Sequence record: MK327941.1
Length of the DNA stretch: 64,000 nucleotides
DNA from: Escherichia phage vB_EcoM_G37-3
Strand: one strand, 5' to 3'
Shown: piece by piece, positions 11,611 through 25,410 of the stretch
Layout: every line of letters starts with the position of its first letter
Numbering within the stretch: the stretch's first letter is position 1
The notes under the pieces: model-generated
Database searches by the model: none
Told to the model about the DNA's origin: nothing
Seen by the model: only the letters and a program-made list of their open reading frames with translations
Made by a program: the position numbers and the translations under genes

Positions 11611-13662
11611 TTACATTTTAAATTTATCTGGCATTGCGTCTACAGATACCAGATCAGCGATAAGCTGACGTAGAGTTGCCTTATCTGCTTTCTTACGTTC
11701 GGTTTTAGCTTCGCTAATGAAGCTGGAGAAAGACAGGTCAGAAGCAGGTTTAACAACACCTTCACGGATGAATGCATCGCCGTCCGCGATCATCTCGCCA
11801 GATTCTTGTAATGCTGCCAGTTCATTTTTGTTCATAATATGTGCCTCAATGTAATAAGTTTCTTGTGAATCCGTCGATGCCGTAGCACGAGTTACCGTAT
11901 CAAAGGATAACACAACACCGCGAGGAAGTAAAATCTCGCATTCTTTGTAAGCAAATGCTTTGTTACCTACTGGCAAGACAGGGATGTTTTCCGCGCCAGC
12001 AATGGAGAAAGCAACATTAGCGCCACCTTCACCGCGAGAGCCAGCCATAGAATCAACACCAGCAACGGCACTAGCCACGTTTGCATTCCAGCCGCCAAAA
12101 ATGTTAGGTGCAAGGGAAGTGCTCACATAGTTTTTAAAGTAAAACGCTTTTTGCTTACGTGCAGTTTCCCACATTTGCGACCGGAAGTCCATACCACGAT
12201 ACAGAATAGTACCAGGATCAAGTTTAACGCCATAGTTAGAGAAGGCATTATCCAGTGCATCGCACATCTTGACCAATTCTTCTGGATCTGCGATTCCCTC
12301 AAACTCTTCCAGCTTACGGTCGGTTAGGAAGTTGTTCATATTGATGTATGCTGCATCGGCATATTCGCTCAACACAAAACCTTCCGCGCCTGGTAGATCA
12401 AGATCAATATCTGCCATCATTTCACCCATGTTGCTAGCAATTGCTTCAAACATACCGGAAGCAACATTACGTAGGGCATCGGTTTTAATCTGGGTGATAT
12501 GACTACGCAGCATTTCAGCTTTTACATCTGCTGGCATAGACTGGTCTACTCGATCCATTGCCAGGGCGGTGATCTTGTTTTCGAATACTTCCTCGCTCAT
12601 GATTTCTTTTAAGCGTTTGATTGATGCTGCGATAACTTCCGCAGACAATGGATCATATTGATCCTGAACTTTTACCAGTTCGCTTACTGCGTATTTTGCA
12701 TCGGCTTCGCTTTCAAAAATAGTACGCATGAAACCATAGCGAGTGATAATATCACTTGTCCAGTCATTCAGAGAACGGGCGGTTGAACGTTCTAAGGCTT
12801 GACGATCAATCAGAGTATTAAACTGTTTCTTAGGTTCGGCTTCGGTGATATCTTCTTCCGGTTTAAGATTAATTTTTTCTGGATGATTCACATAGTCGCT
12901 GTTATAGGTCGCTTGAGTTTTCAGCATTTCTTCTTTAGTCAAACGAGATTTAGCCGCTACGCGTTGTTCCGCTTCCGCGTTTCGTTCTTCTTCTGACACC
13001 AGACTAGCCGCATACGCCTCATCTTTAGTCAGAGATTCACCAGTAGCCTTAGATACCCAGCGATCACCTAAATCACTTTCTACTTTAGTGAACAAGGAAT
13101 CATCAAGTTTAATCCCTTTAATCTTATCAATCGCCATACCGCGACGCTTGACAACAACTAAAGCGATCTTTTTGCTGGTCATTACTTCCTGCTGGAATAC
13201 TTCAAACTTCGGTGTACGACGCACCAAACGCTCTATAACGCGCTTAACCAGTTCGGTCTTACCTTTCATGCGGGATACGTTAAAACGGAACATAACAGCG
13301 TCTAATTGCGCTTTACGGGCTGTTTCCATAACCACATCAAAAGCACTTGCCATAACTGCAATCGGGTTATCGCCTAGACCATTTTTAAGCTGTACAATAC
13401 GACCGCTTTTGTTCATTTCGCACAGTACAACATGCGCTGTCTTGTCACCCATACGAATGATTTTAGGTGTTTTGTTGGTGAAGTTACAAAGACGGACAAT
13501 CACATCTTTATCGCGTGTCTGTACTGCAAAAAGCTGTTTAGGATTCTGCTTAGGCTTTAAGCACTGTACCGGAGCAATACTACCAAAGTTTTCTTCCTCT
13601 TCCGTCAACAGCCATTTCTCGAAAGATTCAATCATTAGGTCGTCGATTTCTAAGTTAAACAT
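11611..13662 (-). CDS. alt: ADP-ribosyltransferase Alt
   Basis: 683 aa (T4 Alt about 682 aa); ILYRG, YVSTS, ECEILLPRG motifs. Confidence 0.9.
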   Translation of the reverse strand: MFNLEIDDLMIESFEKWLLTEEEENFGSIAPVQCLKPKQNPKQLFAVQTRDKDVIVRLCNFTNKTPKIIRMGDKTAHVVLCEMNKSGRIVQLKNGLGDNPIAVMASAFDVVMETARKAQLDAVMFRFNVSRMKGKTELVKRVIERLVRRTPKFEVFQQEVMTSKKIALVVVKRRGMAIDKIKGIKLDDSLFTKVESDLGDRWVSKATGESLTKDEAYAASLVSEEERNAEAEQRVAAKSRLTKEEMLKTQATYNSDYVNHPEKINLKPEEDITEAEPKKQFNTLIDRQALERSTARSLNDWTSDIITRYGFMRTIFESEADAKYAVSELVKVQDQYDPLSAEVIAASIKRLKEIMSEEVFENKITALAMDRVDQSMPADVKAEMLRSHITQIKTDALRNVASGMFEAIASNMGEMMADIDLDLPGAEGFVLSEYADAAYINMNNFLTDRKLEEFEGIADPEELVKMCDALDNAFSNYGVKLDPGTILYRGMDFRSQMWETARKQKAFYFKNYVSTSLAPNIFGGWNANVASAVAGVDSMAGSRGEGGANVAFSIAGAENIPVLPVGNKAFAYKECEILLPRGVVLSFDTVTRATASTDSQETYYIEAHIMNKNELAALQESGEMIADGDAFIREGVVKPASDLSFSSFISEAKTERKKADKATLRQLIADLVSVDAMPDKFKM

Positions 13663-21769: not shown

Positions 21770-22243
21770 TTACTCCTTATTTTCGCGCTCGTACTTTTCG
21801 AAATAAAATTCTACTGGCTGGTCATGAATTGACAGCAAGCCAAAGCGTTTAGCCGCTCGCAATCCCATATTGCGCTGAATGTACTTCTGGAAGTTCTCGC
21901 GTATACACTTACGCCAGTATTCTAAGCCCATACAGCTTTTATAAAGATTGCATTGCACACACGCCGGATTCATGTTATCAAGTATATCATGTTCCGGTTT
22001 ATGCATTCCTACAACCTTATACTTCCACGATCCATCATCATTACGGGCAATTCGTCCATTTTCATCATAGACTACCTTTGAGCGTCGCAATACTGGTTTG
22101 ATGTGGTCTGCGTGCCAGCGATCCCCTAGTTCCTCGCCACAATAGGCACAACGTCCACCATATTTCATTTTCAGGATCTGGCGTTGCTCTTTCTTTGACA
22201 ATTTTTTAGGTTTAGGGGCTTTCGCCCCTTCATTATCACACAT
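21770..22243 (-). CDS. small HNH endonuclease-like protein (157 aa)
   Basis: CAYCGEEL ... HADHIKP ... PACVQCN (HNH zinc-finger pattern); overlaps ligase stop. Confidence 0.65.
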   Translation of the reverse strand: MCDNEGAKAPKPKKLSKKEQRQILKMKYGGRCAYCGEELGDRWHADHIKPVLRRSKVVYDENGRIARNDDGSWKYKVVGMHKPEHDILDNMNPACVQCNLYKSCMGLEYWRKCIRENFQKYIQRNMGLRAAKRFGLLSIHDQPVEFYFEKYERENKE

Positions 22244-23738
22244 CGAATACCTCTTTTACTGTATTTGCAGTGGTCTTGTCGTAGCGAATACGTTTGATGA
22301 TCGGGAGAAATAAAGAGAACTCCGGTTCATCTTCTTTACGTGATTTGCTGCGGATATACCCGTTGCATGTCATCTCAATGACTTTTCCAATCAGGTTATG
22401 ACGGTCAGCCCATAACATTTCTCGGTCGAGTTCATTTCGACGATCGAACGGAATTACACGTTCAATACCATCATCACCTTTTTCGGTTGTAGTGTCGGTT
22501 AATCCCGATCCGGTGTTAGTCATCATTCGTCCGCACGCACTACGGACAGTAAAACCGCCTACCTTATTGGGGTCTTTACTATGCGGATATACATCAACAA
22601 TTTCCGCGTCGAAGTCAATCACTTCTTTAAATTTAACCTGATCTTTACTACGGCGATCTTCAAATACACCATGTAAATTTTTAAGGATAATACCTTCTAA
22701 GCCCATGTTTACATAGCGATGATATACTTCGCGAGCTTCATCTATATTGTTAACTACAGTGTTTTCGATTATCTGAACACGAGGATCGTTAAGTTCTTCA
22801 ACAATCTGTTTTAGTTCTTCGAATCGATCTTTATATTGCTTCGTTGCTTTCTCGTTTCCGTAATACACATCACGGTCGATAACATCCCAGACAGTATAAA
22901 CAATACATTGGGCTTCTTCTTTTGGAATAGTTCCTTTAAGTGATTTGTTGAGGATACCATTTCCGGTCTGACGGTCTGCAACAACGGATTCTTTTACTGC
23001 TTCCGCTACTGGCGTTAATGGCATTTCCTCTTCTTCAAATATCCATGACAGAGTACCATCATAAACGCTTTCAACGAAGTTCTGCGCTGGTGTTTGCGAA
23101 AGGGTAGGCATATATACCAATTCGCCATCTAGAACAATTCCACGGCCTCGTAGACGCTCTAAAACCGCAAACAAATCATCAAGTCCCTGATAGGTATTAC
23201 CTGAACGGGTATAGATTGCTAATGTTTCCCCGTCAATATCAGCCATACCACGAGCACCATCGCTTTTAAGTTGTGCATACGCCGGATACTTGATATTAGC
23301 AATAGCCTTATCAGAATATGACGATGCAAGGTGACACGGTTGCTGGGGGATCAGTTTCTTCCATACCTTGTTTGCAGTGGTAGCGGAACAACCACATTCC
23401 AGATCACGATTCAGGACCATCATTGCAACTTTAGCATCATCTTCTGACAAGCAAGTCAGAGTATCGGTAACTAGCTGTAATGCTGCGTTACCAGTTACTT
23501 GACGCGTGGCAAGTTTATTTTTAAAGACCTGTAATGCACCGGATAAAGACAATACAGACGAATAACGCGATGGTTTATCGTATTTCTTTACGCCAAACGT
23601 AACCTGTTTGCAATATGCCAGATAAAAGCATTCTTTCAGTGTTTCATTGCTTGCAGATTCTTTCAGGATCTTTTCTTTCAGCGATGTTTTGTCTGTTGCT
23701 GCAAGCTGGTTAATGATATTAAGAATTGACATTTTCAC
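22236..23738 (-). CDS. 30: ATP-dependent DNA ligase gp30
   Basis: 500 aa; KSDGAR active-site motif; aligns with T4 ligase. Confidence 0.9.
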   Translation of the reverse strand: MKMSILNIINQLAATDKTSLKEKILKESASNETLKECFYLAYCKQVTFGVKKYDKPSRYSSVLSLSGALQVFKNKLATRQVTGNAALQLVTDTLTCLSEDDAKVAMMVLNRDLECGCSATTANKVWKKLIPQQPCHLASSYSDKAIANIKYPAYAQLKSDGARGMADIDGETLAIYTRSGNTYQGLDDLFAVLERLRGRGIVLDGELVYMPTLSQTPAQNFVESVYDGTLSWIFEEEEMPLTPVAEAVKESVVADRQTGNGILNKSLKGTIPKEEAQCIVYTVWDVIDRDVYYGNEKATKQYKDRFEELKQIVEELNDPRVQIIENTVVNNIDEAREVYHRYVNMGLEGIILKNLHGVFEDRRSKDQVKFKEVIDFDAEIVDVYPHSKDPNKVGGFTVRSACGRMMTNTGSGLTDTTTEKGDDGIERVIPFDRRNELDREMLWADRHNLIGKVIEMTCNGYIRSKSRKEDEPEFSLFLPIIKRIRYDKTTANTVKEVFDV

Positions 23739-24198
23739 CTCGTTTTGTTAAACGTTCACGAATATCATTGAGGATACTACAAAATTCCGATTCAGTCAAT
23801 ATAGTCTTTAACGGATCAGTTCCACCTATGCTATGACGTAATTTCTTATTTCCTGTAGCGAGTAATGCTTTACAAAATTCTGGGTTATTCCGTGCCATCG
23901 TAACAAATGCCAGATGTACCAGTCTGTAATAATGCTCACTCATTCGATGAATCGGGCGACCCTGAAAATATAACATGTGATTCTCAATCTTTTCAGTTCT
24001 TCCGGTTCTTTTTGCTTTGCCACCGTGCATCAAAAAGATTTCTCTTTGTCTCTGAGGGTTCTTAAATCTTAGCCCCTGTAAAAATCCTTCTGTGCTGTTA
24101 ATATCGCAACCAAATAGACGGAATGGTCTTTTATTGAAATTACTCAATTCACCAGATGGATAAGGTCCACCCGCATAGATATCAATTTCAGAAGTCAT
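23719..24198 (-). CDS. NADAR (YbiA-like) domain protein (159 aa)
   Basis: SNF, STEGFLQGLRF (cf. SEHYFQAQKF), GGKAKRTGR, ALLATGNKKL motifs. Confidence 0.65.
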   Translation of the reverse strand: MTSEIDIYAGGPYPSGELSNFNKRPFRLFGCDINSTEGFLQGLRFKNPQRQREIFLMHGGKAKRTGRTEKIENHMLYFQGRPIHRMSEHYYRLVHLAFVTMARNNPEFCKALLATGNKKLRHSIGGTDPLKTILTESEFCSILNDIRERLTKRGENVNS

Positions 24199-24352
24199 TG
24201 AAACTAATCTCGCTAATCAGAGAGAACGGATCATAATCGTCATTAGGAATATCGATAGTAATCGAATGAGGATTTACCCATACACCAAACTGGTCTTCTT
24301 CGGTGAATACTTCGGTATGGATTTCGTGGATGTTTACATTCATAGTTTTCAT
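24188..24352 (-). CDS. small protein (54 aa); not in ORF track
   Basis: AAGGAATTTTATT-ATG; stop overlaps NADAR-like gene start. Confidence 0.4.
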   Translation of the reverse strand: MKTMNVNIHEIHTEVFTEEDQFGVWVNPHSITIDIPNDDYDPFSLISEISFNDF

Positions 24353-24397: not shown

Positions 24398-24423
24398 AAA
24401 TATAGGCGGGATTATTACCCGCC
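24398..24423 (-). terminator. rho-independent terminator after gene 31
   Basis: GGCGGGTAATAATCCCGCC followed by T-rich tract on minus strand. Confidence 0.5.
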
Positions 24424-24799: not shown

Positions 24800-25410
24800 T
24801 TATTTCGCGACCTTTGGATTTCGCCGCAGACCGGAATGTATTTGCGCTATACAACAATAAGAAACATTAAACATATCAGCTATAATTTGCTTCTTAACTT
24901 TTCCTTTAAGCCGCATTATTTCTTCGACTTGCGCATTTGTCAGTTTTGCCCGTGAGTGGTTTTCACCGACATTGTTATTGAGTCCAGTTCTAAATGAATG
25001 TCTCATATTTTCTAGTAAGGTTACTATTTCTAGATTCCACACATAATTGCAGGTTTTACACCATTGATGTGATTAACCTCAAGTCCGGTAACGTCTCCTA
25101 GAAATGCATTTGCTACAAGTCGATGTATCTTTTCGGCTTTAACTGAGATTTTACCATTGTCTTTTTGTTTTGACAATGTTGAATAATAATATCCATATCG
25201 GTCTAAAATTGGTTTTATTATTTTACCAACACGTTTTTGTTTTACGAGCTTAATATTACCGGGAGAAACTTCTCTATAAAATTCGATACTTCGGTCAATA
25301 GATCTCAATCTACCATAATTAGAGATTTCATACCACGGATAACCTACAGCTTGTCTCCATTCTTCCGGCGCTGGTAATATGATATTATCATCTTTTGTTT
25401 CCATTGTCAA
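24800..25410 (-). pseudogene. HNH homing endonuclease (NUMOD4 + HNH) split by a -1 frameshift
   Basis: N-part YPWYEISNYGRLRS ... VNHINGVK; C-part CNYVWNLEIVTLLENMRH continues in another frame; shift at TTTT 25054-25057. Confidence 0.6.

Follow-up and report, generated by a model that had tools for sequence, protein, structure and literature searches.

A stretch of 64,000 nucleotides of Escherichia phage vB_EcoM_G37-3 (MK327941.1; hereafter the window) carries a 159-aa ORF beside the DNA ligase gene, raising the question of whether the product removes ADP-ribose from phage DNA. An earlier note on the window had proposed this from the NADAR motifs and the adjacent ligase, and had pointed to two ADP-ribosyltransferase genes in the same window. 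The analysis described here indicates that the ORF is probably the Krischvirus (RB49-type) ortholog of T4 gp30.3/AdfN, which would remove the ADP-ribose placed by the DarT1 toxin on guanine of phage DNA. This reading is supported by synteny and purifying selection, by membership of the family, by the NADAR fold, and by the Glu, the His and the complete C-terminal helix that the protein retains. The element is of a known kind, phage NADARs of the AdfN type, in its RB49 form; the residual novelty is a natural active-site variant.

The coordinates given earlier for the ORF are exact, and its strand, which had been left unstated, is minus (Table 1). In the ORF list of the window the frame extends from ATG to TAA, and the translation contains all four motifs quoted earlier, SNF at residues 19-21, STEGFLQGLRF at 35-45, GGKAKRTGR at 59-67 and ALLATG at 111-116. 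The place of the gene, adfN, is between genes 31 and 30, which is also where T4 and RB49 have it. The gene order is that of RB49, gene for gene, and the 3.7-kb neighbourhood is 97-99% identical to that of ~59 Krischvirus genomes, including RB49, JSE, PHB13, KFS-EC and GEC-3S. The 3' end of adfN overlaps the ligase gene by 14 nt, with the true ATG of the ligase at 23732 and its Shine-Dalgarno sequence (GAGG, 23741..23738) inside the 3' end of adfN. The 3' end of the ligase gene is overlapped by 8 nt by an HNH endonuclease gene, so that the ligase gene is bounded by overlapping genes on both sides.

Upstream of adfN lies a 54-aa ORF, and translational coupling of the two genes through their 11-nt overlap is likely. 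The product of the 54-aa ORF is acidic and conserved. Its core, IPNDDYDP.SLI, recurs in a relative at 69% identity, where the 54-aa ORF, 30.3 and the ligase gene follow each other in the same order and overlap in the same way. A Pfam search with the 54-aa product gave no match, and homology to T4 30.4 was rejected, the two sequences having no similarity. Given the need of T4 AdfN for a phage helper, discussed below, this tightly coupled ORF is worth attention. A terminator-like hairpin separates the 54-aa ORF from gene 31, which encodes a GroES-like co-chaperonin; as a consensus match only, it may mark the upstream edge of the overlapping set 31.-1/adfN/30. Immediately ahead of the 54-aa ORF and adfN, a consensus scan gave no convincing promoter, and promoter-like sites were not enriched (19 observed vs 16.5±4.3 in shuffles).

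Table 1. Coordinates of the genes and residues discussed, in positions of the window
Feature	Position	Strand	Matches and equivalents
RB49p183 counterpart, ADP-ribosyltransferase, 274 aa	10708..11532	minus	PF03496
alt, ADP-ribosyltransferase, full-length	11611..13662	minus	PF03496
HNH endonuclease gene, RB49p212	21770..22243	minus	PF01844, phrog_2118
gene 30, ATP-dependent DNA ligase	22236..23732	minus	PF01068, phrog_114; RB49 annotation 1497 nt
adfN / gene 30.3 ortholog, 159-aa phage NADAR (gp30.3 family), predicted ADP-ribosylglycohydrolase	23719..24198	minus	PF08010
C-terminal helix, residues 136-158 plus Ser159	23722..23792	minus	DSSP on the AlphaFold2 model, high pLDDT
His122, phage-NADAR signature histidine, codon CAT	23833..23835	minus	replaces Glu (YbiA) / Asp (DarG1) of the last strand
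Lys63 in motif AKRTGR, codon AAA	24010..24012	minus	probable equivalent of PnNADAR K75 / E. coli C7 K115; T4 has Q62
Arg44, phosphate-coordinating lysine position, codon AGA	24067..24069	minus	T4 K43, PnNADAR K50, E. coli C7 K95
Glu37, catalytic glutamate, codon GAA	24088..24090	minus	T4 E36, PnNADAR E43, E. coli C7 NADAR E88 (alignments)
54-aa ORF, RB49p215 / gp31.-1	24188..24352	minus	phrog_15277; stop overlaps adfN start by 11 nt
Terminator-like GC hairpin and T-run, between gene 31 and the 54-aa ORF	24405..24423	minus	consensus match only
NUMOD4/HNH_3 homing endonuclease, between genes 31 and 31.1	24800..25410	minus	

Profile searches placed the protein in the Pfam family PF08010 (Phage_30_3; E=1.2e-38; 132.5 bits, the cut-off being 36; positions 2-138 of the 138 in the profile covered) and in phrog_652 (E=2.5e-45). 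With clustering at 50% identity and a limit of E<=1e-3, the family comprises 973 clusters. The Pfam NADAR search suggested in the earlier note as a check gave a divided result. The canonical NADAR model PF08719 reached 15.5 bits (E=0.021), where its cut-off is 35.1, whereas the fold search and the motif register identified a NADAR. Since PF08719 stayed below its cut-off, the link to NADARs had to rest on fold and motif register, and the relationship to PF08719 holds at the superfamily or fold level only. A profile of 85 family members found E. coli YbiA (2B3W, E=7.9e-4) and the P. nicotianae NADAR (PnNADAR, 8BAU), and the alignment with them matches the SNF motif, Glu, Gln and basic residue to their counterparts. 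The AlphaFold2 model computed from the 85-member alignment has a pLDDT of 96.8 and a pTM of 0.90. Foldseek comparisons of the model with the PDB and with viral models agreed on the NADAR fold, in the form of the NADAR (YbiA) core domain only, without an N-terminal extension. Together, the profile and structure comparisons put the NADAR fold of the protein beyond reasonable doubt. A phmmer search of the PDB sequences gave a lone spurious match to DltA (E=3.8e-4) and no NADAR. A weak NCBIfam match to NF053876, 'DS32_2 NADAR family anti-phage protein' (E=0.023), was also seen; NADAR domains also serve the defence side.

The protein is 100% identical to RB49 gp30.3 (NP_891785; AJ550428), the genes differing at four nucleotides, all synonymous, in an identical neighbourhood. 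Comparison with another Krischvirus gave a dN/dS of 0.023 (20 synonymous vs 2 nonsynonymous differences), and comparison with the homolog at 69% identity gave ~0.10. adfN is under strong purifying selection. T4 AdfN aligns over its full length at 38% identity (E=2e-30). The two proteins share PF08010, the slot between genes 31 and 30, the core-only NADAR fold without N-terminal extension, the catalytic Glu, the signature His (H123 in T4 by alignment) and the intact C-terminal helix, and each is encoded by an orphan gene without an adjacent toxin gene. They differ in Arg44 for K43, in Lys63 for Q62 and in seven extra C-terminal residues of the present protein, which aligns to the end of T4 gp30.3. 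In addition, adfN overlaps the ligase gene directly here, without the 30.1 or 30.2 of T4.

Key residues were counted in 161 family representatives and, separately, in 80 diverse viral loci. The position of Glu37 is E in 158 of the representatives and in all 80 loci, and that of His122 is H in 159 and 78, respectively. The expected Lys seven residues after Glu37 is Arg44 here. The same position in PnNADAR, K50, coordinates the phosphates of ADP-ribose. In the family, position 44 is Lys in 147 representatives, Arg in 10 (~6%) and another residue in 4 (n=161); among the 80 viral loci, those with Arg are the two of Krischvirus and that of Acinetobacter phage 133. The members with Arg form several mutually divergent groups, their nearest neighbours have Lys, and nearly all of them keep the Glu and the His. 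Because Arg is found in several lineages that keep both residues, Arg44 appears to be a natural variant that recurs and is tolerated, rather than evidence of a decaying gene. In the NADAR of E. coli C7 DarG1, the mutant K95R hydrolyses G-ADPr in vitro and has lost DarT1 rescue in vivo (Schuller et al., PMC11543638). This split makes the efficiency of the Arg44 variant against DarTG1 a fair question.

The motif AKRTGR (residues 62-67) aligns with AKKLGR of PnNADAR, AARMGR of YbiA and AQQAGR of T4 in most alignments. The equivalence of Lys63 with PnNADAR K75 is agreed on by mafft --add, hhalign and the HMMER YbiA alignment, whereas mafft --addfragments and the HMMER 8BAU alignment place Lys63 differently; because of this disagreement we only infer the equivalence. 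Position 63 is Lys in 133 of the 161 representatives (~83%), Gln in T4 and Ala in YbiA. In E. coli C7, K115 is dispensable for catalysis in vitro and required for antitoxin function in vivo (PMC11543638). The missing Lys might be related to the failure of T4 AdfN and YbiA in uninfected cells, which is a correlation only.

The function ascribed to the protein derives from work on T4. Chimeric-phage mapping identified T4 gene 30.3 as the determinant of DarTG1 resistance, and the gene was renamed adfN (Johannesman et al. Nat Commun 2025, PMC11825919). T4 AdfN is necessary and sufficient for DarTG1 resistance: T4 or T2 with adfN deleted does not plate on DarTG1 hosts, and expression of T4 adfN rescues RB69, whose own copy is 15 residues short and whose AdfN has lowered activity through the loss of these last residues (PMC11825919). 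Purified T4 AdfN strips ADP-ribose from DarT1-modified DNA; E36A and K43A are impaired, with partial rescue by K43A (PMC11825919). T4 AdfN does not bind DarT1 and has no effect on the thymidine-modifying DarTG2 (PMC11825919). It does not rescue uninfected cells from DarT1 toxicity, and its effect is only partial in phages other than the T-even ones, from which a T-even helper factor for full activity was deduced by the authors (PMC11825919). Every phage NADAR tested so far counters DarTG1 and acts specifically on guanine, and the phage panel of the study consisted of Tevenvirinae (T2, T4, T6, RB69 and Bas35-47; PMC11825919). Activity of T4 gp30.3 on guanine-ADPr in vitro was reported independently (Toxins 2024, PMC11125620), and in a transposon screen 30.3/adfN was essential only with DarTG1 present (HIDEN-SEQ preprint 10.1101/2025.11.20.689424). 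The reversal of guanine ADP-ribosylation by a NADAR, as put forward earlier, is thus supported by the experiments on T4 AdfN (PMC11825919, PMC11125620) together with orthology.

By analogy, adfN would be expressed from the gene block running from 31 to 30, reported to be transcribed early in T4-like phages. DarT1 of the host would ADP-ribosylate N2 of guanine in the replicating phage DNA. The AdfN-type enzyme would bind the ADP-ribose with Arg44 at the phosphate-coordinating position, and Glu37 and His122 would surround the distal ribose. Hydrolysis of the ribose-guanine bond would then release ADP-ribose and restore unmodified guanine, allowing replication to continue. The enzyme would thereby act as an orphan type-IV-like antitoxin that does not bind the toxin. 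Activity and anti-DarTG1 phenotype are established for T4 AdfN only (PMC11825919), and we infer the DarT1-countering function from it for a protein that is 38% identical and has Arg where T4 has Lys. Our confidence is lowered by this K-to-R substitution and by the confinement of direct tests to other phages. The T-even helper needed by T4 AdfN, the modest identity and the PF08719 score below its cut-off also weigh against the reading. The Krischvirus source lies outside the Tevenvirinae used in the tests of T4 AdfN, and a search of the accessible literature for DarTG with RB49 or Krischvirus yielded no published test, only three incidental co-mentions.

Phage NADARs are known as 'gp30.3 proteins', defined by a His where YbiA has Glu and DarG1 has Asp (PMC11125620, PMC11543638), and comparisons with these two relatives set the present protein apart from both. 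In contrast to DarG1 (E. coli C7; G. lovleyi 8BAT), it is phage-encoded, has no N-terminal extension and no adjacent darT1, and carries His122 for the catalytic Asp (D171) and Arg44 for K95. The protein is a 159-aa core only, its neighbours are the 54-aa ORF, the ligase and gene 31, and no ADP-ribosyltransferase gene is adjacent; it is thus not of the DarG1 (BC4488-type) group. Unlike in YbiA (2B3W) and PnNADAR (8BAU), the conserved Glu of the last strand (E125 in PnNADAR) is replaced by His122, which places the protein outside the YbiA subfamily.

A tentative and rather doubtful extension of the preferred reading is that RB49-type AdfN is a functionally distinct active-site variant, with E37/R44/H122 and K63 against E36/K43/H123 and Q62 of T4. 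In such a variant, Arg44 and Lys63 might alter the efficiency, the toxin range or the dependence on a T-even helper factor. For example, the variant might neutralise DarT1 in uninfected cells, unlike T4 AdfN; alternatively, its target might be some other DarT-like toxin, with no protection against E. coli DarTG1.

The best-surviving alternative, which we regard as improbable, is an active NADAR whose target in nature is a base-ADP-ribose adduct other than that of E. coli DarT1 on DNA, for instance guanine-ADPr in RNA, or the DNA adducts of YarT-like, pierisin/ScARP-like or divergent DarT toxins. The K-to-R change and Lys63 would then mean a retuned specificity. The different residues at positions 44 (R vs K in T4) and 63 (K vs Q) are compatible with this, as is the uncoupling of in vitro activity from DarT1 rescue in DarG1 K95R (PMC11543638). 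NADAR subtypes share G-ADPr activity in vitro and differ strongly in the toxins neutralised in vivo (PMC11125620), and G-ADPr in RNA is also removed by all NADAR families (PMC12945103). However, orthology and synteny with T4 adfN argue for the same target, as does the activity of all tested phage NADARs against DarTG1 (PMC11825919). Phage NADARs are not among the removers of cytidine-ADPr in a summary table (PMC12945103), and no result of this analysis points to a different substrate.

Very improbable is a role on soluble, low-molecular-weight ADP-ribose derivatives, such as immune signals or by-products of RNA repair, in place of macromolecular adducts. Iyer et al. proposed such substrates as the main ones of phage NADARs from comparative genomics, and also pointed out associations with genes of RNA repair and of NAD salvage (PMC9503650). 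The RNA repair genes pseT and rnlA do lie a few kb away in the window, as in RB49. However, no NAD-salvage genes are adjacent to adfN in the window, and the proposal is older than the T4 experiments, in which DNA was a substrate of AdfN in vitro and loss of the gene had a DarTG1-specific phenotype (PMC11825919).

The two ADP-ribosyltransferase genes pointed out earlier are real, as both match PF03496. They are paralogous and in tandem, and the 274-aa copy resembles the C-terminal part of Alt. Co-location of T4-like NADARs with ADP-ribosyltransferases among the early genes was noted before, and the two were reported to be co-expressed early (PMC9503650). An even slighter chance is given to adfN as the eraser of the marks set by these Alt-type transferases, which lie ~10-13 kb downstream on the same strand, the two forming a writer/eraser pair on host proteins. 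Alt-type ADP-ribosyltransferases modify proteins, whereas the reported NADAR substrates are N-glycosidic base adducts and riboflavin intermediates (PMC11543638, PMC11125620, PMC12945103, PMC9503650), and no report of NADAR activity on protein ADP-ribose was found in the literature. The phenotype of T4 delta-adfN is seen only with DarTG1 (PMC11825919), the family is spread over many contexts across the 80 viral loci, and our search found no evidence tying adfN to the phage's own Alt-type enzymes.

The position beside the ligase, taken earlier as fitting a role in repair or anti-defence, proved to be weak evidence of function and was rejected as such. A ligase was detectable within 3.5 kb in 6 of the 80 diverse viral loci of the family, and in T4 two genes, 30.1 and 30.2, intervene. 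Adjacency to the ligase reflects T4-like synteny and does not characterise the family. Once the ribose-N2 bond is hydrolysed, an intact base and no nick should be left, and consequently no mechanistic role for a ligase. Least probable of all, and disfavoured, is a DNA-repair accessory working with the ligase, in favour of which stands the 14-nt gene overlap and against which stands the lack of detectable linkage in the other 74 loci, or a YbiA-like N-glycosidase of riboflavin intermediates. The protein does share the fold of YbiA, but it has His in place of the YbiA-defining Glu of the last strand. YbiA itself acts in the riboflavin pathway, and it fails to rescue cells from DarT1 (PMC11125620).

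With the AdfN-like function as the preferred reading, the significance of the locus is mainly one of annotation, since the database entries for RB49 gp30.3, the RefSeq one included, and for its ~59 copies in Krischvirus still read 'hypothetical protein'. The name suggested for the Krischvirus copies is AdfN-like phage NADAR (predicted anti-DarTG1 DNA ADP-ribosylglycohydrolase). The K-to-R change at position 44 and the K/Q difference at position 63 constitute two natural variants for probing the uncoupling of in vitro and in vivo activity, and the same two could address the need of T4 AdfN for a T-even co-factor. For phage therapy, the gene would tentatively predict resistance of Krischvirus to DarTG1-bearing hosts.

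Two further observations concern the wider family and the neighbourhood. Many representatives of the gp30.3 family are 250-540 aa long, with the NADAR domain at either end (including P0019, P0021, P0024, P0039, P0058 and P0061), and several have two matched stretches (P0019, P0021, P0069, P0117 and P0135), which suggests that the long members may be fusions or tandem NADARs. The homing endonuclease gene beyond gene 31 is absent from RB49. In phage E26 the same gene is intact (203 aa). In the window, the loss of one nucleotide from an A-run (AAAAA to AAAA, ~25054..25058) breaks the gene into two ORFs, of 126 aa and 80 aa, and reflects either a pseudogene or a homopolymer sequencing error.
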